Source: an uncultured delta proteobacterium (GTDB lineage Bacteria; Desulfobacterota; WTBG01; CAIYCZ01). Taken from it: a stretch of DNA of 64,000 bases. The stretch is taken from assembly GCA_963803975.1 (NCBI GenBank), contig CAWDOY010000015.1, forward strand, positions 1-64,000, in the 5' to 3' direction. The notes beneath the pieces are model-generated. The model was not told the DNA's origin, ran no database searches, and saw nothing but the letters and a program-made list of their open reading frames with translations. A program made the position numbers and the translations under genes. Below, piece by piece: positions 4,462-60,705 of the stretch (the first letter of the stretch is position 1; each line of letters begins with the position of its first letter).

Positions 4462-7442
4462 TCACCTTCTTTTACCATATAGTAATCTCGGCATCGCGGA
4501 AACCGGCCCGTGGAATGTTGTCACGTACCATTCAGGTCTATATCCTCCAGCTTGTAGAAATAAGTCTTTCTGTTTTGCACATTCTTATCAACAAACTCAT
4601 ACGACAGCGCCCTGCGTGGAAGAGCCCTGTGCATGAATCAGCGCACCATTGATTTTAGTGTATTCTCCATTCTCTGATGCAGCGCGGTAGATATTAAATC
4701 CTGCATTATCAATTTCTGATTCAGTTGACCACACAAGGGTAACGCTGCCTGAAGCAGGAGACGCGGTGAATGTTGACAGCTCCACAACCGTGGGCGGCAC
4801 CGAGCTGGTGGTTGTGAGCGCAGCTGTGGTGGTTGTCGTTGCCGGGACAATGGATGTTGTGGTGGTGCCTGTTACCTCTCCAAAGTGCAGGACCGTGCCG
4901 GAATCGCCCCCCGCATACACATCCGCTGACGATGCCCCCCATACGGATTTCAAAGCCGGCAGGGCGGTTGTCGCCAAGGTTGAAAACAGGCGGGCTGCCC
5001 CGCGTTGTGCCGGGTCCGGGATTGCCGGAAATAACGTGCTGATATCAACCAGCGACCAGGCCGACCCGTCATAGTGCAGCACCGTGCCCCAGTCACCGAC
5101 CGCGTAGATATCGCTTGCCGAGCTGCCCCAGATGCTGTACAGCGTATTTGACGTGGGGCTTGCCATGCGCGACCAGACGGTGCCGTCATAGTGCTTGATG
5201 GTTCCGTAATCACCAACCGCATAGACATCGCTCGCCGAGCTGCCCCAGATGCCGTGCAGATAATTCGACGTATTGCTTTCCACGGTCTGCCAGTTTAAGC
5301 CGTCATAATGCACAATCGATCCCTGTGAGCCGACTGCGAACACGTCGCTGCCGGAGCTGCCCCAGACGCTTCGCAGCTGCTGTATGCCGCTGACAGCGGT
5401 CCGTGACCACGAAGCGCCGTTAAAGTGAAGGATGGCGGCGCTGCTGCTGTAGCTGCCGACGGCAAATATATCCTGCGCAGAACTCCCCCAGATGCCCAGT
5501 ATCGTTGTTGATAATGTGGTGGCCTGATTCCAGGCGCTGCCGTCATAGCGCCAGATGCCGCCAAAGAAAGCGCTCATGTAGATATTGCTCGCCGAGGTCC
5601 CCCATAATGCGTCCAGATCAACCCCCATGTTCGACGGCAGGCTCATTTCAGACCAGCTCTGCCCGTCGTAATGAAACAGCCGGTTGATCGCAAGGCCGCT
5701 GTTGCCGCACACATAAATATCATTCGGCGATGTTCCCCACAGATCCTGAATCATCATGTCCGCCGCTATCTGCGCGTAGGTCCAGCCGGCCTGAGAGTCG
5801 CAGGCATCCCCCACGCCGTCGCCGTCACTGTCCGCCTGGTCGGGGTTATAGGCGTCCGGGCAGTTTTCAACATCTCCGCACACTCCGTCCTGGTCCGCGT
5901 CATTGAGCGCGTCATGCGTGCAGATATCGCAGGCATCCCCCGACAGCGTCGTTGTCCGTATCAGCCTGGTCAGGGTTATAGGCAGCTGGGGCAGTTGTCA
6001 AAAGCATCCGCTATAGCGTCACCGTCTGAATCCATACTGTCTTGTCGCAGGCATCGCCCGCCCCGTCGCCGTCGCTGTCAGCCTGGTACGGGTTGATAAC
6101 CGCCGGGCAATTATCCGTTGCGTCGGCAAATCCGTCACAATCACTATCAGTCAGTCCCCCTATGAGGCAGGGTTCTCCCGCGTCTGCATCGCATACCGTT
6201 GACACGGTGGCCGCGCTGTTTGACACGGCGACGCTTGTGCTGGTTGCGTTAATCGTCAGTGTTTGCGCCGGAACCGTAACCGCGACCGGGACAATGGAAC
6301 CGGCCGTGACCGTAAAGTCCCCGTTTTTCATCAAGCTGCAGTTTGGCATGGCGCCGTTTTCTGCGATCTTCATCACAACGGCATCCTCGTACTGTTCACC
6401 GGAGTTTGAAATGGTGCCACACAGCAGATACCCGCCATCAGCAGCCGCGCTGATAGACCTGGCCATGTACCGCGGCCCCGCTGCCGTAGCGCTTCTGCCA
6501 CTCAATGCTCCCGTTTCCTGCGAGTTTGAGCACGACCACATCCTCATGCTGCTCTTCCCTTATCCATGAATACCCCGCGACGACATAGCCTCCGTCCACG
6601 CTCTGCAGGACTTCGTAAGCATAGTCGATACTGTTTCTGCTTAATATACGCTGCCAGATGATGTCACCGTTTGCTGCAAGCTTCAGAATCAGGATATCTT
6701 GAGCCGAACCATACCTGGTCCCGGCGGCAATGTACCCGCCGTCCGCGGTTTCCTGTACCGAGTAAGCATACTCGTTAATGGAGCTGCCGTATGATTTCTG
6801 CCAGACAACCTCGCCGGTCGCAGTAATTTTTAAAACCATGAAGCCCACGATGCCTGCCCCGATCGGGCCAATACGTCCGCATATGATGTACCCGCTGTCA
6901 GTGGTCTGCCGTATCGCGTAATATTCGGCGGAATCAGAATACTTCTTTGCCCACGTTACCGTCCCGGTTGCAGAAAGCTTCAGGACGCAGGATATTCCGG
7001 CCGCAACGTAGCCGCCGTCTGCCGCCTGGCAGACAGCATACAGGGTTACGCCGTAACTTTTTGACCAGATAATGTTACCTGACGCATCAAGCTTTATGAC
7101 CCGCGATTCGCCGGCCATGATAAACCCACCATCAGCAGTCTGCTGCGCGCCGGCAACCGAATCCCGGTACGAACCGCCATAAGTCTTCTGCCATGACAGC
7201 TTGCTGCTGCTGTCAAATTTCATCATCCACATGTCCTTGTATCCGGCGCCGAATGATTCGGTGCTGCCGCCGACGATATACCCGCCGTCCGCGGTCGGCT
7301 TGATTACATTCGCCATATCCACGCCGCTGCCCCCGATGACCCTGGTGCCGTAATGGCTTGAGGCAACGGCAGTGCTGTTGAAAGTGAATGCGAAGAAGAT
7401 AAAAGATGTGGCAATGAAATTTATTGACAGTGACTTTTTCAT
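4462..7442 (-). CDS. Secreted modular protein 1: beta-propeller, thrombospondin type-3 repeats, WGSS repeats, Thr-rich linker, shared C-terminal domain (frameshifted)
   Basis: ORFs 6438-7442, 6011-6547 and 4597-5883 join; signal peptide; QTADGGY repeats; DNCP..NPxQxDxDGDGxGDACD; ends [16 protein letters not shown]. Confidence 0.75.
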
Positions 7443-7611
7443 GAATCCCTCCCTTTTCGTAATGAGCGTGCGTAGAGCTTCAGCAAGCGGCTCATGTTTT
7501 AATTTAGCAAATTCATTTATCTACTGCAATATAATAAACGCGGTGTTGCACTCACCGGGCCGTGCTTTTTCGTGGCTCGTGACCCGTGCCTCGTATTTTA
7601 ATAAATTCCTC

Positions 7612-9652
7612 TTATCTGTTTCTAAAAAGCAGGCGTGGTGTTGCACTTATTGGCCCATGTAGGGTCGAGTTCCCCCAAGGTCTATGTCCTCCAGCTTGTA
7701 GTAGTAGGTCTTCCTGTTCTTCACACCTGGAATCTGTGAACTCATACGCTGCACCCTTCGTGGAAGAGCCCTTTGCGGGGATCAGTCGCTGTTTATCTTT
7801 ATATAGTCCCCATCTTCTGACTCTGCGCGGTAGATATTAAAGCCTGCGTTGTCGGTTTCAGTTTCGGTCGACCAGGTGAGGATTATCGTTTTTGTTCTGG
7901 GAATTGCTGCGAAACCGGAGAGACTGATCATCGTGGGCGGAAGGCTGAAACTCATACGCGCCCATATCATAGTAAGGATACACGCCGCTGCCGGTATTCG
8001 GAATCTCCGGCACATCAAAACGCTGCGTGCCTTTTATATCCATGGCGGGAGCGTTGCTGCTGGTCCCCGCATCAATGCAGGGCGAGCCTGGCTGCAGGCG
8101 AAAGTCATCGTCCGGGGTGCCGATAACATTGTCCGTCCCGTCAGCATCAACAAACAGCGGCTCCAAATTAATGTTTCCGGTTCCCGACCACCCGCCCTGA
8201 ATATCCGAAAACGTGATTAGCGGGTCAAAATAAGGGATTGACTGGCCTTTGACACAGTAATACCCCATGCAATCAATCTCTTTTCCTGACAGCCCGTCTG
8301 CCCAGAAAATGCTATTGGTGATAGTGAGGGGATAGACCGTCTGAACATAACGGGTTGCCAGGAGCCCGCCATTTCTATTATTCGTAAAGGTGCAGTTGGT
8401 AATAGTCAGAGATTCACCATTACGGTCATGGATTGCACCGCCGCCATAGCTGTACTGTTCAGCACTGTTGCCGGAGAAGACAGAGTTTGTAATGGTTACG
8501 GCGCTGTGTTCTGTATAGATGGCGCCGCCACCGTACTGAGCTGCACTGTTGCCGGTAAATGTGCAGCTGGAAATTGTCAGCGGGCTGTTATTATTATATA
8601 TGCCGCCGCCGGAACCTGCAGCGCTGTTGCCTGAAAAGATGCAGTCGGAAATGACTGGAGAGCTGTAATCATTATACATGCCTCCCCCGCCATCGTTGAT
8701 GTTATAGGAGGTGTTAGCGTTAATAATACAATGTAGAGATAGTGGGGGTGCAGCGGTAACCGGTGTGCCCGCATGGGAGGGTCACCGGGCGAGGCCGCCA
8801 CCCACAGGACTTCTCCCCCTGGTTATAACAAACCCGTCCAGCAGAGCATCCCGTGTTATTTTGAAGCATCCAGTCATAGACTGGCCGTCCACCGTCGTTG
8901 TATTGATTTTCCAATCCCGCTGGTTCCTCATTGTTTCCGTGCCGGCAAAACCGCCATAAACGGCAACCGCTTTATTGATCAGTATCTGAGAGGTGAGCAG
9001 GTAGGTGCCCTGCCTGACCCATACCTCCCCTCCCGAGGCATTTATGCCTTCCTGGATTGTCTTGAAAGCGGTTGCCCAGGTTGTGCCGCAGTTGCCGCTG
9101 CAGGCTGAGGCTTTGTCCACATATACAACCGCGTCACTGTCGCATATATCGCCGATACCATCCCCGTCGCCGTCCTGCTGATAGGGATTTGCAATAAAGG
9201 GACAGTTGTCAGAGCCCGTACACGACGGAGCGGATCATGCCGGGATCGCATATGCCGTCATTATCATCATCAGGGTCACAGGCATTGCCGCTGCCGTCCT
9301 GGTCATTGTCAGCCTGGTCAGGGTTGTAAACAGCAGGGCAGTTGTCGCATGCATCACCCAGAGGGTCGGAATCAGAATTTTCCTGACCGGGATTATAAAC
9401 AGGACAGTTGTCAACATCGTCAGTTACGCCATCCGCGTCATGGTCGTTACAGGCGTCTAAGCAGTAACTAAAGCCTTGATAGCAGTCTCTCACGCAAAAC
9501 GGATTAAATACGTCGCACCCTGCCAAACAGGCATCAAGCTCATCCTCGCACGTTTGGGCGCAGGTTGCATGCACGGTGTCCGTCAATACGAAAAGTACGC
9601 CTGAAAACAGAATCAGGCTTATGGCAGTTGCGGATACAATTTTGTGATGCAT
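7612..9652 (-). CDS. Secreted modular protein 2: Cys-rich N-domain, TSP3 repeats, parallel beta-helix (choice-of-anchor-Q-like), shared C-terminal domain (frameshifted)
   Basis: ORFs 9209-9652, 8782-9120, 7858-8679 and 7782-8018; FSGNSA/GGGIY repeats, [20 protein letters not shown]; ends [10 protein letters not shown]. Confidence 0.75.
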
Positions 9653-9836
9653 GCGTATCTCCCTGGATTAGTTTGAAGTGTTGTGTTTTTAGTTTGAAGA
9701 AATATCGAACTCAATGTCTCCAAATTTCAAGACCGAGCCACGAACCGTTAATCCCGAAGACTGAATATAAGACGAGGTTTGCTGCAACAGGCCCGTATAT
9801 TTTGTGGCCCGTGTCTCGGAACCCATGGCTTGCACT

Positions 9837-11928
9837 TTATTCACCCAACCCAAAGATAAGACGAGGAGTAGCCTTTATGGGACCGCGTAAGGTTGATACT
9901 CCATCGAGGTCTATGTCCTCCAGTTTGTAGTAATAGGTCTTCCTGTTCTTTACATCAGTATCAATAAACTCATACGCAGCGCCCTGCGCGGAAGAGCCTT
10001 TCGCGGGGATTAATGCATCGTTGATTTTGATATATTCTCCGCCTTCTGCTTCAGCGCGAAAGATATTGAACCCGGCGGTGTCGATTTCGGATGCGGTGGA
10101 CCAGGTAATATGAACGGTTCTGCTGGAGGGGGAGGCGGTAAACGAGGATAGTTCAATCAGCGTTGGTGTTTCCGCATAGCGGAGTATGGTCCCGGAGACT
10201 CCCACGGCAAACACATCGCTGCCTGAGCTGCCCCAGACTGAGCGCAGTTCATTTCCAGCCCTGCTGTTCATGGGTGACCAGGTGCTGCCATTGTAGTGAT
10301 AGATAATGCCGCAAAAGCCGGCGGCGAAAACATCTGTTGCCGAGCTGCCCCAGACAGCACACAGCCCGCAGTCTGACGGGGGTGTCATGGTCATTGTTGC
10401 CCAGCTATTGCCATCAAAGCGCAGGATTACATTTTCAGTAAAAGTATACCCCACGGCAAACACATTGTCTGCCGAGCTGCCCCACACGCCGCGGAAATAT
10501 GCAGGGTATCCGGTTTGTACCGGAGACCAGCTGCTGCCGTTATAATGGAGCATGCTGCCTTGGCCGACAGCATAGACATCAGTGGATGAGCTGCCCCACA
10601 CGCCATAAAGCGGATTAGTAGTGCCGCTGCTCATTTGCGACCATGTTGTCCCGTCATAATGGAGGATAAGGCCATCATTTCCCACCGCAAAGACATCTGT
10701 GGCAGAACTGCCCCACACACAGTTTAGACCGCTTAACCCCAGATACGGTGTCATAGGGGACCACGAGGTCCCGTTGTAGTGATAAATGACCGGGAGGTAA
10801 TAACAGCCCATGGTGCAGATGCGGCCGGTACTTCCCACGGCAAAGACATCGTGTGCAGAACTCCCCCAGACGGAATAAAGAGTGTATTGACCTGCTGGGG
10901 TAGCAGACCACTCTGTTCCATCATAATGATAGATTGTGTTGCCTCCCACCGCAAAGACATCCGTGGCAGAGCTGCCCCACACGCCGTTTAAGTCATTTAA
11001 TGTAAAATTGCTTGACAGGGGTGCCCAGGGCCATCCGCTGATCCCGTTATAGTGATGCATGGAGCCGTTATTGCCCGCCGCATAGACATCGCTGCCTGAG
11101 CTGCCCCAGATGCTGTTGGCGGAAACAACACTGCTCGAAGACCAGGTGCTGCCGTTATAGCGATAAATACCCGCTGCGCTTCCCGCGTAAACATCAGCGC
11201 CGCCAGATCCCCAGAGGCAGCGAAATTCCGCTGTAGTGCCGCTGGTCATGGCAGACCAGGAGCTTCCGTTGTAGTGATAGATTTTTCCGCTGCTGCCCGC
11301 CGCAAAAACATCATCAGCGGCGCTTCCCCAAACAGCGTAAAAGAATTGCCCGGTGGTGGGCATCGCGGTCCAGCTTGAACCGTCATAATGCAGAATGTTC
11401 CCGCTGTAGCCCACGGCAAAGACATCAGTCGCGGAACTGCCCCAGACCGCAGTAAGCCCGAAGCCGTACGGATTAGTTGTCGCGGACCAAACGCTGCCGT
11501 CGTAATGCAGAATGGTGGCTTCACCCACGGCAAACACATCACTTCCCGAGCTGCCCCAGATGCCGTAAAGATGTACCGCGGTGCCGCTGGCCATGGCAGA
11601 CCAGGAAGCGCCGTTATAATGCAGAATGGTGCCGAACGACCCAACGGCAAAGACGTCGCTTCCCGAACTGCCCCAGGTGCTGTTTAAAATATTGGTTGTG
11701 CCGCTCTCCATGAAAGACCAGGCGCTGCCGTTATAGTGGAGGATGGTGCCGCCGGCGCCCACGGCGAACAAATCGGTTGCTGTAGCTGCCCCAGATGCCG
11801 TTGAGATGATTTCCCTGCGGCAGGGGATTCAGCCACGTCCATTCCTGGCAAAAACCGGAATGATTCACTCCTGATAAAAACACCAAAAACAAAATAGTCA
11901 GTAAAACAGAAGACTTTTTATTCACCAT
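9837..11928 (-). CDS. Secreted modular protein 3: about 13 WGSS-xxDVFAVG beta-propeller repeats plus shared C-terminal domain (one frameshift)
   Basis: Signal-peptide ORF 11731-11928 joins the 644-aa ORF. Confidence 0.8.
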
Positions 11929-12182
11929 ATCCCTCCGTTTTTAGGTGCGTGGCCAATGACCCGTGACTGGTGACTCGGGATGCTAAATATTGAGTGCTGC
12001 TCCCAACCCCAAAAGCTTTCCCTGCTCCGAACTCCCCGTCCTCCGCAGCAGAAAACTGCGGTGGATGGACGATCTTAATTTCTTCGAACTTTTAAACCAC
12101 TAATCTCGAAATTATAAAATAAGCCGCAGCCTTAAGGAGACCGGCCATACTATTTCGTCTTTCGTGACTCGCGGCTTGCACT

Positions 12183-12931
12183 TTATTTACCCAGCCCAAA
12201 GATAAGACGAGGAGTAGCCTTTATGGGACCATGTAAGGTTGATACTCCATCGAGGTCTATATCCTCCAGCTTGTAGAAATAGGTCTTTCTGTTCTGCACA
12301 TCAGCATCAACAAACTCATACGCTGCGCCCTGAGCGGAAGAGCCTTTCGCGGGGATTAATGCATCGTTGATTTTGATATATTCTCCGCCTTCTGCTTCAG
12401 CGCGGTAAAGGTTGAAGCCGATGTTGTCTAATTCAACCTCGGTACACCACATAATAATTACCGTCTTTTTTTTGTAATGGCTGAAAAAGCAGATAGATCA
12501 ATAAGTGTCGGGTCACAGACATCACCAGTGCCGTCCCCGTCAATGTCTTCCTGTGCTTTGCTGCAAAACCCGCCAGCACCGCATTGACCGTTGTAACTGC
12601 ACTGAATGCCTGTGTTTGTCCCCGCAGTGCAGGTTCCCTTGCGAGGGCCGTTTAGGATGTCAGGACAGTTGTCATTTTCGTTCAGGATGCCGTCAACATC
12701 CCCGTCATTCTCAGCAATAAATGCACAGCAATATTGACAACTCGTTATGCATCCCGCATATCCGCCTGGACCAGCACCACTGCAGAACTGATAACAGCCT
12801 ATGGCGCAGGCACCAGTGGGAAAAGTTTCACACGAACCATACTGAGCATACACGTCTCCGCAATTATTATTAAAAAAGGCGGTGCCAATAAGGAATGCAG
12901 TAACAATAAAGATATTACATTTCTTGTACAT
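12183..12931 (-). CDS. Secreted modular protein 4: Cys-rich domain, TSP3-like repeats, shared C-terminal domain (frameshift near 12455)
   Basis: ORFs 12458-12931 and 12183-12452; GGAGG RBS; signal peptide. Confidence 0.75.
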
Positions 12932-12943
12932 AAAAACCTCCCT

Positions 12944-15339
12944 TCAATTTCCCAATCCGTAAATCAGACGTGGTGTTGCACTTATTGGCCCATGTAGGGT
13001 CGAGTTTCCCCCAAGGTCTATGTCCTCCAGCTTATACCAGTAGGTCTTCCACTTTCGCACCGTTGAATCGGTAAACTCATACGATGCACCCAGTGAAGCC
13101 AAACCTTTCGCGGGAATCAACTCGCTGTTTATCTTTATATAGTCGCCATTTTTTGACTCTGCGCGGTAGATGTTGAAACCCTGCGTTGTCGGTTTCTGTT
13201 TCCGTAGCCCATTGCAATATAACTTTGCCTGCTTTCGCTGTCGCAGTAAATGAAGACAGATTAATGACTGTCGGCCCACCTGATTCTGCCTGCAAATAGC
13301 TGCCGCCTATCCCGCCGATGCTGGTCACCCCCTTGCTTGCTAAATCAATCTCTACCGGCGGGGAATGATACACCCACACCTTGCTCTGATACAGTTCGGT
13401 TACGATTACCCCATCATCGGTGGTCGCGGAAATGGTAAAGTTCATGAAATTCTTTGTGCTTATAGACGAGATGTCGCCCCTGATGTCGCGTTGGTTTATT
13501 AATGCTCCGCTGGCATCAAAATAGAACAGATGGCTTAAATACTGTCCGCCGTCAGTATTGCCGATCCCGACAAATTTGCTATTCTGCATCCCCGTCAGTA
13601 TAAAGATGGTTATATTGCTGGAGGTGATATTGACTTTATTGATCAGGTTGAGGGAGTTGTCATAAAAGTAGAGATATGGGGTCAGCCCTGCTCCCCCGAA
13701 ATAAGTGGCGCCGTATTCTGGTAGAACCACAAAGCCTCCGCCTGCCAGTCCTGCCATGTCCCCCATTTTCGACATAGCTATAACTCCACCCCTCAGGATC
13801 AGTCCACGCATTAGTTGTTCCGACTACAGTGCCTGAGGCATTATAAAGAGTAATCTGTCCGGTAGCCACTGGCACTGGTCACGAAATTGCCATTGCTTAG
13901 GCCTGCGTAATTAGGCCCCGGGGCCATGGAGGAACCGCTGAAGGTGTTGCGCAGGGCACCTGATGAATCAATGTGCCAGATTTTCCAGTCACTGCCGCTT
14001 TGCCCCTTCAACAACCAGCCGCTACTTCCGGCATCTCGTATAAAATACGGGTGATCCAAGAGGGCTGAAATCAGCGGTATTAAGAAGATTGCCGGCAAGG
14101 TCAAAGATGAAGACCTTCCGCGCTTTTTCATCAAGCACTGCAAATCGGCTTCCCTGATCACATACATCACCAAAACCGTCCCCATCTGCATCAACTTGGT
14201 CAGGGTTATAAACCGTGGGGCAGTTATCAATAGTGTCATTGACACCATCATTATCATATTCAGTGGGGAAGTTATCACAAGTATCACCCATACCATCCAT
14301 ATCAGCATCAAGCTGATCAGGATTATAGGTGTTTATGCAATTATCACATACATCACCAACCCCATCCACATCAGCATCCTGCTGATCAGGATTAGATATG
14401 TGCATACAATTATCTTGTGTATCAACAAGGCCATCGCTATCCTCATCACCATCATAATGGAGGATTATGCCATACGCACCTGCTGCAAAAACATCCGCAG
14501 CAGAACTGCCCCAAACCCCATATAGATCATTTGTTGTCCCGCTTGACATGGTCTGCCAGCTGTGGCCATCGTAGCGGAGGACAGTGCCACGATCACCCAC
14601 TGCAAAAACATTGCTTGCTGAGCTGCCCCATATATCAAGGAAAGTGGTATTTTTAATGCTGAATATCAGAGACCAGATAGTTCCATCATAATGGAAAATA
14701 CCATCATTACCCACTGCAAAAATATCGTTTGCCGAACTGCCCCATATACCATAAAAAATCTGTGTAGCTCCACTAATCATGGGAGTCCAGGTAAGGCCAT
14801 TATAATGGAGGATTGTGCCTTTATGCCCTACCGCAAAAACATCTGTAGCAGAACTGCCCCAGACAGCCATGAGCTGATTTGTCGTGCCGCTGGTCATGGC
14901 AGCCCAGGTGCTGCCGTTGTAGCGACTAATTGCGCCATCTACACCCACTGCAAAAATATCGTTTGCCGAACTGCCCCATATGCCATAAAGCTGCTTTGCA
15001 ATTCCACTATTCATAGAAGTCCAGGTACTGCCATTGTAACGTCGGATTATACCCGCAGGTCCCACAACAAAAACATTACTGCCCGAACTGCCCCAGATTC
15101 CTGAACCGAAGTAATTCGCCATTAATCCCCACGAACTGCCGTTGTAGCGGAAAATGCTCACTACCCCCTACTGCAAAAACATTGTTTGCTGAGCTGCCCC
15201 AGACATCGAAGAACCAGGCTGTTGTATTGCTGTTCATCACAGTCCAATCAGTGTCATCAGCAAAGGCGCTCGTAGAGGATATCAGTACTAATGCTGCCAG
15301 TAAAAAAGACGGGATAAAAAACTTTTTGAATATTTTCAT
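12944..15339 (-). CDS. Secreted modular protein 5: WGSS repeats, TSP3 repeats, beta-rich domain, shared C-terminal domain (frameshifted)
   Basis: MKIFKK signal peptide at 15339 with GGAGG RBS; ORFs 14022-15161, 13841-14311, 13077-13811 and 12944-13279 join. Confidence 0.75.
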
Positions 15340-15672
15340 AAATTCCTCCCATAAAAAAACTTTTGACAGTATCAAAAAAATAAACCCCCACCAGCCACAC
15401 AGACTGATAGAGGTTTTCATATAATCACAACAAAATAATTTATTGATGTCACCGGACATTCCCCAAAATACAATAAATTTTTGTAAATTTTACAATAAAT
15501 CGCAAGGTTAAGTCAATTAAATAAATATATATTTTTGCAAGCTATAATAATTCTATGCTTTCTATGTAAATATAAGTTAAAGCACTGTACAATATTGCAA
15601 ACTTGGGCTATAAATAAATTGCAAATTCATAAAACAGTCCTGTATCCTGCCTCCATTACAGAATAATATTAT

Positions 15673-20933: not shown

Positions 20934-22205
20934 ATGAATTCCAGTCAGCTAAGAATCGCCATGCTCAGCGTGCACTCCAGCCCGCTTGGAGAGCTTGGCA
21001 CCAAAGACACCGGCGGCATGAGCGTCTATATCCGCGAACTCGCCAGAGAACTGGGCAAACAGGGACACCTGGTTGATATTTACACCCGGCAGAACCATCC
21101 GGCAGGCGAACAATGCGTGCCTGTTTCCCGGAATGTCTCCCTCATCCACATAGAAGCCGGCACCAGCGGCTACATAGACAAACTCGCCCTCTATCCCCAT
21201 CTTGCAGAATTTTTCCAGCAGATGGAGCGGTTCAGGATGCGTGAAAACCGGCGCTATGACATCGTTCACAGCAATTACTGGCTTTCAGGAAAAGTGGGCG
21301 CCTGGGCGCAGATGCACTGGCATGTGCCCCATTTCGTTCTATTCCACACCCTCGGCGCGGTTAAAAATATGTTTCCAATCGGCAGCCCCGAGCCGGCACT
21401 GCGCATAGCAACCGAGAAGATGGTTGCTAAAACCTGCAGCGTGATTCTGGCAGAGACAGAGCGGGAGCGCAGGCAGCTGACCGAGCTGTATGATGCTGAC
21501 CTGGATAAAATTAAGGTGATACCCTGCGGCGTAAACTTTGACCGCTTCCGGCCGCTTGACCGGAACCAGGCCCGCGGCAGGCTCGGCATACCTGCAAACG
21601 AGCGTATTCTATTATATGTGGGCAGGCTTGATCCGCTCAAGGGCGTTGACCGGCTCATCACCGCGCTCAGCTTTCTGGACCACCAGCAGAACCTGCGGCT
21701 GCTCATTGTCGGCGGGGATGGAAGCGAAACAGCAGAGTTCCGCAGCCTGCAGGAGCTGACGCAAAACCTGGGTCTTGAAAATTCCGTCACCTTTACGGGA
21801 AGGGTTGATCACAACGATCTGCCGCACTATTACAGCGCCGCGGATATGCTGGTGCTGCCCTCGCATACGGAAAGCTTCGGCCTCGTGGGCCTTGAAGCTC
21901 TTGCCTGCGGCACGCCGGTAATCTCTACCCGGGTGGGCGCGATGGACCAGATCATCCGCAGCAATGAAAACGGGTTTCTGGTAAACAGCGCCGACCCCCG
22001 CTCACTGGCAGAGGGCATCGAGCTGTTCATGCCGCAGGTTCGTGACGGGTTCCTTTCCCGCGCGGCAATCCGCAACAGCGTCATAGAGTACAGCTGGGAG
22101 AAAGTTGCCGCGGCCATGGCTGATGCGTATCTCGGCGCGATCCAGCGCGCCTATCCCGGATTCGTTATTGGGACCACGAGCAGGCTTCCGGCGTTTGCAG
22201 GCTGA
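20934..22205 (+). CDS. MshA-like GT4 glycosyltransferase
   Basis: MLSVHSSPL..G..DTGGMSVYIREL, HSNYWLSG and PSHTESFGLVGLEALACGTPVI. Confidence 0.85.
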   Translation: MNSSQLRIAMLSVHSSPLGELGTKDTGGMSVYIRELARELGKQGHLVDIYTRQNHPAGEQCVPVSRNVSLIHIEAGTSGYIDKLALYPHLAEFFQQMERFRMRENRRYDIVHSNYWLSGKVGAWAQMHWHVPHFVLFHTLGAVKNMFPIGSPEPALRIATEKMVAKTCSVILAETERERRQLTELYDADLDKIKVIPCGVNFDRFRPLDRNQARGRLGIPANERILLYVGRLDPLKGVDRLITALSFLDHQQNLRLLIVGGDGSETAEFRSLQELTQNLGLENSVTFTGRVDHNDLPHYYSAADMLVLPSHTESFGLVGLEALACGTPVISTRVGAMDQIIRSNENGFLVNSADPRSLAEGIELFMPQVRDGFLSRAAIRNSVIEYSWEKVAAAMADAYLGAIQRAYPGFVIGTTSRLPAFAG

Positions 22206-22297
22206 CCGGCTTCATTCCTCCTGGACACTGCCTGTATATTTTTTTTGACTCCTGACGACGGCACTGGCTGTCTTGCTTACACATACGGAGTGTTGCT

Positions 22298-22993
22298 TTG
22301 GAAAAAACGGCTGACATACTGGTAATAGCGCCGCATCCGGATGATGCTGAATTCGGCGCAGCAGGGACCATTGCCCGCTGGACAAAGGAAGGCAAAAAAG
22401 CAGTTTATGTGGTCTGCTCAAGCGGCGAAAAAGGCACCAGTGACCGCAGCCAGCAGCCTGAGCAGCTCGCGGCTATAAGGGAAAAGGAGCAGATTGCTGC
22501 AGCGCAAACCGTGGGAGTTAGTGAAGTCCTGTTCCTGCGCTATCCTGACCAGGGGCTGGAAGACACCCCGTCATTCCGCAAAGAGATCGTCCGGCTGATC
22601 CGCACCTATCGGCCCGCAACGGTCGTTACCGCCGATCCCTATCGCCGCTACATCTGGCACCGCGACCACCGCATTACCGGCCAGGTGGTGCTTGATGCGG
22701 TCTTTCCCCTGGCCCGGGACCACCTCGCGTACCCGGACCTGCTTGCTGAAGGCTTCGAGCCGCACAAGGTGCAGGAGGTGCTGTGCTGGGCTTCTGAAGA
22801 TATAAATTACCGCTCTGATATCACGCACACCTTTGAACTGAAGCTCGCTGCGCTGCGCTGCCATGAGAGTCAGGTTAAAGAGTTCCATGTTCCCGACCTT
22901 GCGGAACGGCTGCGGCAGCGGTGCATGGAAATGGCCAAAGGTGAGAATTTCGGGCTGGCAGAAGCATTTCATCAGGTAAAGATAGCTATGTAG
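22298..22993 (+). CDS. PIG-L family (MshB/BshB-like) N-deacetylase
   Basis: APHPDDAEF, HRDH and CHESQ motifs. Confidence 0.9.
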   Translation: MEKTADILVIAPHPDDAEFGAAGTIARWTKEGKKAVYVVCSSGEKGTSDRSQQPEQLAAIREKEQIAAAQTVGVSEVLFLRYPDQGLEDTPSFRKEIVRLIRTYRPATVVTADPYRRYIWHRDHRITGQVVLDAVFPLARDHLAYPDLLAEGFEPHKVQEVLCWASEDINYRSDITHTFELKLAALRCHESQVKEFHVPDLAERLRQRCMEMAKGENFGLAEAFHQVKIAM

Positions 22994-23053: not shown

Positions 23054-23082
23054 TTGACATTTGAGTTAATTAACCATATAAT
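23054..23082 (+). promoter_or_regulatory. Perfect consensus sigma70 promoter
   Basis: TTGACA (23054-23059), 17-nt spacer, TATAAT (23077-23082). Confidence 0.8.
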
Positions 23083-23201
23083 TGAATCAAATATAGTATT
23101 AATCATTTATGCGCTTATAAGATACCGGCAAATAAAAGTGTCGTATATTAATAAGCACAGTAAGGGGAACCACCAGATAGTTTTAGAGGAGGAGTCCGCG
23201 T

Positions 23202-23315
23202 ATGAAAAAAGAGTATGAAGCACCACAGGTAGTAACCTATTCGGAAGATGAAATCGTGGAGATGCTGGGACCGGCACAGACATGTTCACCAAGCCCGTGC
23301 CCGACCTATCAATAA
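23202..23315 (+). CDS. Unannotated 37-aa peptide, RiPP-precursor-like: MKKEYEAPQVVTYSEDEIVEMLGPAQTCSPSPCPTYQ
   Basis: GAGGAGGAG RBS just upstream of the ATG, consensus promoter upstream, terminator downstream; below the ORF-track size cutoff. Confidence 0.75.
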   Translation: MKKEYEAPQVVTYSEDEIVEMLGPAQTCSPSPCPTYQ

Positions 23316-23342
23316 GCAGCTCTCCGGAAAAAACAATTAAGT

Positions 23343-23376
23343 AAAAAAAGCGGTGTCAGCAATGACGCCGCTTTTT
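23343..23376. terminator. Bidirectional intrinsic terminator
   Basis: AAAAAAA-GCGGTGTCA-gcaa-TGACGCCGC-TTTTT. Confidence 0.8.
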
Positions 23377-57711: not shown

Positions 57712-58486
57712 TTAGTTCTTTTTCTTTTCTAATGCAAGTCTTTTAGAAGCCTCCTTGAGCCGGTAACTCTTTCCTTCAAATTTCAGCAGATGACCCCGGT
57801 GCAGCAGGCGGTCAAGAATGGCCGAAGCCGCCGCATTGTCTCCAAGCAGTTTCCCCCAGTCTTCAATCGGCCGGTTTGAGGTGATCAGCGTGCTTTTTCG
57901 GTTGCGGTAACGCTCCAGAATCACATCCATAAGATCATCAGCGGCATGTTCCGGCAGACGCTTTTTTAAGAACAGATCATCGATGACCAGAAGATCGGTG
58001 CCACAGAACAGTTTTAACAGTTTTTTGCGTTTTCCGGTTTGCGTGGCTTCAAAGATGTCTTCAAAGAAACACTGTTCTTCCCGGTAGGCAACCTGATAAC
58101 CGGACTGGATCGCGGCATGCGCAATCGCCTTGGCCGTGTGGCTTTTGCCGGTGCCGGGTTGACCGATCAAAAGCGCATCGTCACCGTTTTGGACGAATTG
58201 CGGTTGTTAAGAGTTCAAAGACCTCCTTTTTGGGCAGCTTCGGGTTAAAGCACCAGTCAAAGTCGTTCATAAGCTTTTTCTCATCAAGACCCGATGCGTT
58301 AAAGCGGCGGTCAACAAGGCAGGAGAGCCTGAAGTCCAGTTCATCCTGGACAAGGGCTGTCAGGACATCAAGAACGGGACTCTTGTCCTGCTGTGCCTGG
58401 AGCAGGCGGGCCTGAAGGCTGCGGGCCATGCCGTGCAAACGAAGTGCTCGGAGGTGTTTTTCAACTTCTTCAAGTGTCATGGTCAT
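57712..58486 (-). CDS. istB: IS21 helper ATPase (frameshifted)
   Basis: GQPGTGKSH, LLVIDD and AILDRLLH..GKSYR. Confidence 0.9.
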
Positions 58487-58626
58487 AAGCTTACTCCTTT
58501 CTGTTTTTGGCTTTCATAAATGCCCCACAATCGACGATTCACTGCGGGGATACATTCAGGTACGCCTTCACCGTGTCTGTCCGGGCTTCTTGGGGAGATT
58601 GCAGGACTGAAGGCTTTGTCACTGCA

Positions 58627-60234
58627 TCACGACTGCTGAGCCGGCCGCATGGTGTTCAAAGAAAGCGCATAGTCCTGCGGCGAACGAATGAACTGGTGCT
58701 CCTGCGTAATGCTCGGGATGTCTCTGGGGTGGGTCTTTTGTCTAATTCCGGCAAGGTCAGTGACTATCCGGCGGATGATACTCACGGTGCGAAGTCCTTT
58801 TTCAAAGGCCATCCGGGCGGCCTGCTCAATATGGATGGCACAATGCTGGCGTACCATGCTCACAATGCCCTGCATGCGACGGTGCCCCTGGCGACCCTCT
58901 CCCTCAAACAGTTGCTTGCACAGTGCTTTTCCGTAATGGGACCGATCGCCGCGGCCCGGGCCAATAGATAGCACGTCTGCCGGGAAGGATTAAATATCCG
59001 GTCTTTTTCCTCCATCAGGACCATGCCCTGCCGGCTGCCTTTGGGGTGCCGCCGCAAAACGGTCAGGGTTTGAGGATCAATGATTTCAATCTCGTAGTCG
59101 TAAATGCGCACCATGACCTTGGTATGCAGCCGGGCGGGAAGTGCTGCATAATAGCAGTCCTGGACCTGAATGGTGCCGTCATCCTGGACCGTGCGGGTTT
59201 CCTGGCGGAAGAAGAGCAAATTTCTTGAGCGGCAGAATCTGGAGAAACGGTTTTTCTTCTGCAAACATCTCCTGCGACCTGTCGTTTCGTTCGGCCGTGT
59301 ATCCGCTGGGCCGCCCAGCGTCTCTTCCCAGTGCATAAGCAACCTGTTTTGTTCTTCAATGCTTTCAAACCGGCGGCCTTTCAGGGCGGTGTTCTGGGTG
59401 TGCTGGATGGCGTTTTCAACGCTGCCCTTGCGGTCGGGATCTGCCACGCGGGCCGGGTCTGCCACGACACCGTAATGGGCAAGCAGAGCTGCATAAACCG
59501 GGTTTAGCTCCGGCTCATAGAGATCGGGCTTTATGACACCTTCCTTCAAATTATCCAGAACCACATACTGGGGGCATCCGCCAAAATACCGGAAGGCCTC
59601 TTCATGCAGTTGGGCCCATACCACCTGGCTGGATTTCCAGACCACCTTTCGGAAACAGCGGCGGGAGTACTTCAGCGTCATGACAAACAATCGGGGACGG
59701 CGGTATGTGTTTGTCCCGGGATTACGGGTGAGAGCGCCCAGACCATAGTCCACCTGGGCCTCCTCTCCGGGCAGAAACTCCAGCCGGTCATACTGCTGCG
59801 GATGTTTTTTGCGCAGCGCACGGCAAAACGTTTCACGCTGTTGTATCTGCTGGTAAAGGCAAACCGCTCAACCAGGTCCTGATAAATGGAGACGGCATTG
59901 CGGCCCAGGCGCACCTGCTCCTCTATCCAGGGGCGGTGCTCTTCGCAGGCTGAGCGGGCATGGGCCGGAATCTGATTGCTTCCTGATCCCGACCCTGAAA
60001 AGCCGGTGGCCGGGGTGGGGGATTTTGACCGACACTACTCTTCGGAGCCGGTGGCCACCCCGGGGGATTTTGACTCTGTTGCGCTCGGTCTGCTGTCAGC
60101 AGGTTATGCAACCGGGCGTACTTGCGGATGGTCTTGCGATCCACGCGTGCCTTGCGGCTGATCTCGCGCTGACTGATTCCATTGGTAAGTAATGTAATTA
60201 TTGCTGCTTTCTTGTTCGGTTGCAAAACGTTCAT
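58627..60234 (-). CDS. istA: IS21 DDE transposase (frameshifted)
   Basis: HTH DRKTIRKY, PGEEAQVDY, FGGCPQYVVLDNLK and KGSVE. Confidence 0.9.
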
Positions 60235-60705
60235 CCTTTCTCTTCCTCCCATTACTTTTGTAAAAGGGGAGTTGTAACGTTCTGCTGCCAGTTTGAAAAG
60301 CTCTTTATGAAGGCTTTTCCGATTTCTGGACGTGCTAGGTGGGGGATTTTCAAGTGGCCACAGGTGGGGGATTTTGGGTGGCCATCCGGGGTGTTCCTTA
60401 AAGCATTGTTAATAATCAGTGATCCCATAATCTTTTGGTTATATTGAGCCAAGGTGTTAATATCTAACATCTATAGTAATGATAATAATGGCTCATTTAA
60501 ACCATAAAACTTTTTCCCATAATTTCTCAATCCCCATTTTTGCAGAACCCTTCCAAACAGCTAACCTCTTTAAATAGCTCTATATTTTTAAATCCGGCGT
60601 TTTAGGTATTAAGCACAATTATACCATTGGCACAGGAGTTGAACATGTGACTGTGCACATTGGGGTTATTGATTAAAAAAAGTTCACAATTTATGGGGTA
60701 ATAAA

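Follow-up and report, generated by a model that had tools for sequence, protein, structure and literature searches.

A YxxP-leader peptide gene coupled to a C25 peptidase and CTD-bearing surface proteins, and its possible role as an acceptor in protein sorting

The peptide gene at 23202-23315 of the window (the whole stretch of 64,000 nucleotides that was analysed) belongs to a family that is genetically coupled to a surface-protein system comprising a C25 peptidase and secreted proteins that share a common domain, the CTD. It is very probably the precursor gene of a pathway like that of the LPP phosphopeptides, extended by a radical SAM enzyme. For the processed core, we favor a reading in which it is the acceptor onto which the C25 enzyme would transfer CTD-bearing cargo, because the gene layout makes the peptide in step with the cargo; we set the probability of this whole reading at roughly 0.45.

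The peptide gene is preceded on the forward strand by a sigma-70 promoter (23054-23082) that matches the consensus at 12 of 12 positions, with TTGACA at 23054-23059 and TATAAT at 23077-23082 separated by a 17-nt spacer. Seven perfect sites with this spacing are present in the source genome (labeled G000 in the analysis), against 0.47 expected from base composition, and the window copy is the only one of the seven intact peptide copies in that genome to possess one. The ribosome-binding site GAGGAGGAG (23186-23194, forward strand) lies 7 nt upstream of the ATG of the 37-residue ORF (23202-23315). Downstream, the intrinsic terminator (23343-23376, not assigned to a strand) contains a hairpin at 23350-23371 with a predicted folding energy of −24.4 kcal/mol (z = −6.27; none of 200 shuffles as stable), which did not appear in the output of a simple terminator scan of the sequence. 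The A-tract on its 5′ side and the T5 on its 3′ side suggest a bidirectional terminator, common to the peptide gene and a convergent ferritin/Dps-like gene. These elements had all been proposed in an earlier, sequence-only reading of this DNA, with which the translation also agrees, and they are borne out further by two syntenic metagenome contigs (L120 and L175), in which the promoter and ribosome-binding site are kept and the hairpin carries compensatory changes; the peptide core of L175 contains a 1-nt insertion. No significant fold was predicted for the 5′ leader RNA (z = −0.45). Contigs from three metatranscriptome runs and one further run cover the peptide gene and its neighbors at low depth; as assembled contigs, they establish neither transcription of the gene nor its level.

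The leader (residues 1-27, 23202-23282, forward strand) contains a YxxPxV RRE-binding motif and an acidic stretch, and ends in GPAQT; the core (residues 28-37, CSPSPCPTYQ, with the stop codon at 23283-23315, forward strand) places a Pro at +3 between Ser residues at +2 and +4. Cleavage by an S26 peptidase is predicted after Thr27, on the basis of an A(−3)/A,T(−1) pattern in the family and of LppA cleavage after Thr−1 as given in the available part of PMC13381572. Cys28 is the predicted target of the radical SAM enzyme, and a Ser or Thr within residues 28-37 is, by analogy, the predicted phosphosite.

A tblastn search located nine peptide places in the source genome: seven copies are intact, one is truncated (C20:50430), and one, on contig C53, is divergent and frameshifted. 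The seven intact copies are under purifying selection: summed over their 21 pairs, the last 33 codons show 282 synonymous against 44 non-synonymous differences and the last 16 codons 157 against none, so that the core is identical in amino acids in all seven. Homologue searches returned 69 close homologues, and 322 clusters at 50% identity match the peptide profile; neither Pfam nor NCBIfam holds a model that covers the family. A chance, non-functional small ORF or orphan relic might be argued from the lack of an operon copy in the source assembly (see below) and from the metatranscriptome contigs, which give no proof of expression, yet the codon pattern, the number of clusters and the conserved promoter and terminator largely refute this explanation and leave it very improbable indeed.

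Across the family, as had been anticipated for a genuine precursor, the leader is conserved and the core highly variable, residue +1 included. Among the 140 parsable peptides from the best 150 of the 322 clusters, Ala occupies −3 in 135 and Ala or Thr occupies −1 in 135; Cys is at +1 in 91 cores and missing from that position in the other 49, and a second Cys falls at +6 in 31 of the 91 Cys-type cores and at +4 to +9 in 53. Judged from these alignments, neither the second Cys nor the Tyr is conserved, and Cys-x4-Cys/Tyr, which the sequence-only reading had described in the core, is not a family feature. Since the +6 Cys is confined to 31 of 91 and the first Cys absent from 49 of 140 peptides of this sample, the disulfide or aromatic cross-link that had been envisaged is likewise unsupported. 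A second subtype shares the leader and has a longer, His/Gly-rich core (G000:C53:108340-108500, L240, L241, L242 and L244); it is stand-alone, Ser is frequent at its +3, and a frameshift interrupts it in the source assembly; its product is possibly metal-binding.

The gene had been regarded as an orphan precursor whose maturase would be encoded elsewhere. The second part of that proposal holds and the first does not: the source genome contains, besides its seven intact copies, a maturation operon on contig C3 (C3:187260-194081), which encodes a PqqD-type RRE, an RRE-radical SAM/SPASM enzyme, an HprK-like kinase, a C25 peptidase with a propeptide, and an S24/S26 peptidase, so the peptide is not an orphan. 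The kinase, both peptidases and the tie to secreted cargo had been overlooked. The operon of the source genome contains no peptide gene and its HprK-like kinase gene is split by a frameshift. In L022, from the same genus, the peptide gene and its promoter lie between the PqqD and radical SAM genes, and relative to L022 approximately 240 nt with promoter and peptide are absent from the operon of the source assembly. Many genes of the source genome contain single-base frameshifts, so calls of gene absence or breakage in this assembly need care. Among relatives, where the gene order is PqqD-peptide-radical SAM-HprK-C25-S26 with the radical SAM gene optional, 17 genomes supply 19 operon loci in which the gene directly 3′ of the peptide encodes the radical SAM enzyme or HprK, the association with radical SAM/SPASM and PqqD genes that the sequence-only reading had suggested looking for; at one further locus (L105) the operon enzymes are present with no match to the peptide.

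The best PDB match of the PqqD profile is LppB (9x8z), and the conserved Asn37 and Asp75 of PqqD align, in an alignment read by eye, with LppB N33 and D70, which bind YxxP according to the available part of PMC13381572. The S26 peptidase keeps its catalytic Ser27, His66 and Asp85, invariant in nine of nine sequences and like S29, H68 and D93 of LppS; it matches TIGR02228 below the cut-off (E = 1e-7), as the HprK-like kinase does TIGR04352 (E = 2e-15). Phosphorylation of Ser by HprK-like kinases is confirmed for lasso peptide pathways in the portion of PMC8498205 that was accessible. By analogy with LPP, binding of the peptide by the RRE, cleavage by the S26 peptidase and phosphorylation at Ser or Thr are highly probable. 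Co-folding, which had also been suggested as a check, yielded a score of 0.64 for the peptide with PqqD and the S26 peptidase and 0.63 for a control in which S26 was replaced, and these scores are given no weight for or against an interaction. Three more PqqD genes occur in the source genome (contig C25:79978-80253, with 46% identity to the operon PqqD, C19:38528-38827 and C19:48065-48358), with no peptide or maturase seen nearby. A 292-aa gene 5′ of the operon PqqD was left out of the system; it has no Pfam or NCBIfam match and, from the translations, lies behind efp and an EpmA-like gene.

Of the pathways that have been studied, LPP (LppA/B/K/S/D/N, Bacillota) is the closest, and we compare it here as far as the available part of PMC13381572 describes it. 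In LPP, the YxxP motif is the binding site of the RRE, Ser3 receives its phosphate from the kinase, and an SpI-like peptidase cuts after Thr−1 with help from the RRE; that paper leaves the biological role and final product open. Both systems have a YxxPxV leader, a free-standing RRE, a kinase resembling HprK, and a leader peptidase (resembling signal peptidases of archaeal type) with Ser, His and Asp that cuts, here by prediction, after Thr−1; Ser+3, the LppK site in LPP, recurs in the members here that lack the radical SAM gene. Here, however, the leader is longer and acidic, with its Tyr at −23 (−16 in LPP), and ends in GPAQ[AT] rather than HQxIxFET, leaving only YxxPxV and Thr−1 in common with the LPP consensus YxxPxVLxHQxIxFETxxS. 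The operons here further differ by an optional RRE-radical SAM/SPASM enzyme, a C25 gene, the lack of a conserved NTP transferase or MsbA gene, and peptide copies that adjoin, and fuse to, secreted proteins. The operon of the source genome lacks both the NTP transferase and the MsbA-like transporter, and NTP_transf_5 has no match over the cut-off in that genome; in the five genomes searched, this family was found beside the system only in G181, and it occurs in polysaccharide loci of G035 and G232. The main text of PMC13381572, so far as available, makes no mention of C25, gingipain, radical SAM, sortase or Desulfo, and its supplementary tables might list C25. Lasso peptides of the paeninodin type also share the YxxP leader, a B1-like RRE and an HprK-like kinase. 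The Asp or Glu that closes the lasso ring at core positions 7-9 is absent from the window core and present in 29 of 140 family cores (from the best 150 of the 322 clusters); no lasso cyclase or B2 peptidase is encoded among the operon genes; the single PF13471 match in the source genome is in a 487-aa protein away from the operon; and the window peptide scores 13.4 bits against NF033528, for which the cut-off is 33.

The radical SAM enzyme, with an N-terminal RRE and a CxxxCxxC motif, is optional in these operons, and its presence co-segregates with the first core Cys: Cys+1 is found at 13 of 13 operon loci with the enzyme and none of six without it, and the latter six all have Ser+3. These six loci come from five genomes and a single family and so represent few independent events, perhaps one or two losses; two of the genomes (G261 and G401) each contain another peptide copy that has Cys+1. 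The operons without the enzyme provide a natural control for its target. The SPASM domain has seven invariant Cys, with Cys at the eighth position in 6 of 14 sequences, and this pattern fits the open Aux I site that the available part of PMC6231123 describes for CteB and proposes for AlbA. Together with the co-segregation, this makes a thioether formed from Cys28 the likelier outcome, by analogy with CteB, AlbA and PapB, maturases that share the N-terminal RRE, the CxxxCxxC motif, the seven-Cys SPASM domain and a Cys-containing substrate, and that differ in that the enzyme here is optional. The RRE-radical SAM architecture and the Cys co-segregation fit a sactipeptide or ranthipeptide maturase, although the family cut-offs are missed: no NCBIfam family reaches its cut-off, the best score being approximately 138 bits and common to the anSME, MftC and StsB models. 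The same available text of PMC6231123 notes that function is hard to predict within this subfamily. The best PDB match of the enzyme is anSME. The CSPS of the core resembles the sulfatase motif; an anSME-like formylglycine reaction there is less favored because the eighth SPASM Cys is not conserved.

The proteins to which the peptide is tied share the CTD, a domain with no Pfam or NCBIfam match that is predicted to fold as an Fn3-like beta-sandwich (pLDDT 88.7; best match 3mpc, E = 5e-4). The CTD model was built from the neighbors of peptide genes (L019-L035) and then run on other loci. The source genome contains approximately 40 CTD loci, five of them in the window at 4.5-13 kb. These five form a row of CTD-ending genes on the reverse strand (4500-13811; domain ends near 4523, 7614, 9839, 12185 and 12946), several of them frameshifted and none with its own peptide copy; a candidate cargo is the 644-aa ORF at 9837-11771 (reverse strand), which ends in the Fn3-like CTD and an ATPR tail. 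The row is headed by a frameshifted gene (14022-15459) whose secreted, propeller-like repeat product contains thrombospondin type 3 repeats. A Thr is placed three residues before the CTD in 85 of the 92 cargo proteins; after the domain comes a short hydrophobic tail, the place of which is taken in other lineages by a transmembrane helix and basic residues. At L109, L110, L115, L251 and L118, the tails vary between a transmembrane helix with basic residues and Cys-containing motifs before the helix.

Five of the nine peptide places in the source genome lie within 64 nt of a CTD end and a sixth heads an array of CTD genes; seen from the other side, five of the 40 CTD loci have a peptide copy directly behind the domain and approximately 35 have no adjacent copy. 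In the metagenome set (79 loci from the best 80 of 196 matches, close relatives and not independent), the 84 copies flank a CTD gene in 63 cases, 49 directly after and 14 directly before it; the operon accounts for 7 more, and of the 14 found elsewhere six lie near contig ends. The coupling also takes the form of 13 in-frame fusions that run from a passenger through the CTD, Cys-Gly, a transmembrane helix and a basic stretch to a complete precursor. Most have an N-terminal signal-like stretch, they fall into at least two sequence subtypes, and three are open frames in genome G181. Elsewhere, deletion-type junctions join a CTD straight to a truncated peptide gene; the reading frame is lost in the source genome (G000:C20:50371-50470) and kept in P0167. 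Such junctions may be due either to recombination between repeats or to assembly error.

Among 401 genomes of the phylum (kin included, so that these counts are not independent), the peptide was found in 13, the CTD in 31, C25 in 45 and the radical SAM enzyme (E ≤ 1e-60) in 10. All 13 peptide genomes contain the CTD, 12 contain C25 and 9 the radical SAM enzyme; in the one without C25 (G202), the PqqD and peptide genes lie at a contig end. Such co-occurrence, the 63 copies beside CTD genes (of 84, from the best 80 of 196 matches) and the fusions would be left unexplained if the product were a free secreted RiPP, an LPP-like phosphopeptide with a thioether that served as signal or antimicrobial, with C25 at most an outside processing enzyme and the cargo-adjacent copies hitchhiking for dosage. 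The enzyme set (LPP plus radical SAM), the conserved leader with its variable core, and the existence of stand-alone copies, that of the window included, all suit such a product, but a leader peptidase is already supplied by the S26 gene, and we consider this explanation quite unlikely. Seven genomes (G045, G083, G093, G134, G211, G388 and G399) contain CTD and C25 with the peptide undetected; six loci from five of them gave no PqqD, HprK, radical SAM or peptide match. In G093 and G399, a CTD is fused into the C25 protein itself.

The operon C25 protein has a propeptide and a His and Cys dyad, with PorU as its best PDB match; the dyad motif is present in 19 long C25 reading frames, and scores against NF033707 (272-289) are below the cut-off of 420. 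The available parts of PMC4560394 describe how PorU cuts type IX secretion system (T9SS) cargo before the CTD and joins the C-terminus so created to an A-LPS linker, for which PMC7468200 is cited too, and how PorU joins cargo to free peptides when A-LPS is missing. The likeness to type IX secretion extends from the C25 dyad and propeptide to the many secreted proteins with a common beta-sandwich CTD. It ends at the Fn3-like CTD, which no Pfam or NCBIfam model matches, at the lack of a T9SS type A tail (PF18962 has no match in the source genome; the control was positive in 2 of 14) and at the acceptor, which in type IX secretion is a sugar linker of A-LPS, not a gene-encoded peptide. PF11751 (PorP/SprF) also has no match in the source genome, as in its control, which had none either. 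Processing of CTD cargo by the C25 enzyme is probable, and the conserved Thr shortly before the domain is a possible site. A second C25 gene of the source genome (G000:C18:5762-9314), broken into several frames, adjoins a CTD-bearing gene.

In the acceptor reading, the PqqD-type RRE would bind the YxxP leader, the HprK-like kinase would phosphorylate the core, the radical SAM enzyme would cross-link the first core Cys, and the S26 peptidase would cut after AQT to free the core, onto which the PorU-like C25 protease would transfer CTD-bearing secreted proteins, anchoring them at the cell surface. The window copy, with its perfect promoter, would provide a bulk pool of peptide for the approximately 35 CTD genes without an adjacent copy, and would also stand in for the copy missing from the operon. 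The weakest step is the last, that the core is exported, perhaps linked to glycan or lipid via its phosphate, and acts as the nucleophile that anchors the cargo; we hold it tentatively, at somewhat below even chances. Lacking a signal sequence, and placed in the fusions after the transmembrane helix and basic cluster, the peptide is predicted to be cytoplasmic, in contrast to the C25 and CTD proteins, which are predicted to lie outside the cell. No transporter is conserved beside the operon: two f1 genomes have an ABC-2 pair there and G165 has an MsbA-like gene, and none was seen in G141, G172 or G232. The variable residue +1 is odd for a dedicated nucleophile, and the seven genomes with CTD and C25 and no detected peptide also stand against an acceptor, as does the absence from the source genome of an NTP_transf_5 match over the cut-off, a nucleotidyltransferase of this family being one that could link the phosphate to a glycan.

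Several of these observations serve the main rival explanation, in which the matured peptide does not leave the cytoplasm or membrane and works as a receipt or regulator, with one phosphopeptide per cargo tuning export, C25 activity or surface-polysaccharide synthesis, while C25 anchors the cargo to a glycolipid as PorU does. The cytoplasmic topology predicted in the 13 fusions, the lack of a conserved exporter at the operon, the genomes that manage C25 and CTD without the peptide, and the NTP_transf_5 genes in the polysaccharide loci mentioned above are in its favor; in the loci read, however, the operon has no receptor or regulator gene conserved close by, and the core, being invariant among the seven copies of the source genome, carries no cargo-specific information. 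On balance, we judge a receipt or regulator somewhat unlikely. A non-covalent role, with the matured core a stoichiometric ligand, cofactor or activator of the CTD or C25, would agree with the near 1:1 synthesis with cargo that adjacency and fusion suggest, and the His/Gly-rich cores behind the same leader could bind metal; it meets the same compartment problem as the acceptor, and the small share of CTD loci in the source genome with a copy directly behind them (5 of 40) is a further difficulty, making it improbable. The acceptor reading, in its fullest form, describes a RiPP that is matured, joined to the envelope and used by a PorU-like sortase outside type IX secretion as the acceptor for proteins with an Fn3-like domain, the anchor being made in step with its cargo, whose cytoplasmic tail it may itself form, or else being encoded by a neighboring or stand-alone gene; so stated, we rate it as less probable than its negation.

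The maturation core alone is a variant of LPP; what has no precedent that we found is its coupling to cargo, that is, a precursor gene that recurs beside surface proteins and as a fusion to them, while its operon encodes a PorU-like enzyme (among the freely accessible papers that the literature search covered). If the peptide is an acceptor, then a RiPP would play a structural part in protein sorting, a function would be added for C25 enzymes beyond type IX secretion, and the role of HprK/RRE phosphopeptides could be tested with a set of five small genes and a single cargo.

Directly upstream of the peptide gene, the window encodes an MshA-like GT4 glycosyltransferase and a PIG-L deacetylase (20934-22993), a mycothiol- or bacillithiol-like pair with scores below the cut-offs. 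These two genes and the ferritin/Dps-like gene were considered as parts of the system and set aside, as they flank only the syntenic copies in L120 and L175. Further along, at 57712-60252, are fragments that, in translations read by eye, resemble an IS21-type transposase and its helper ATPase.
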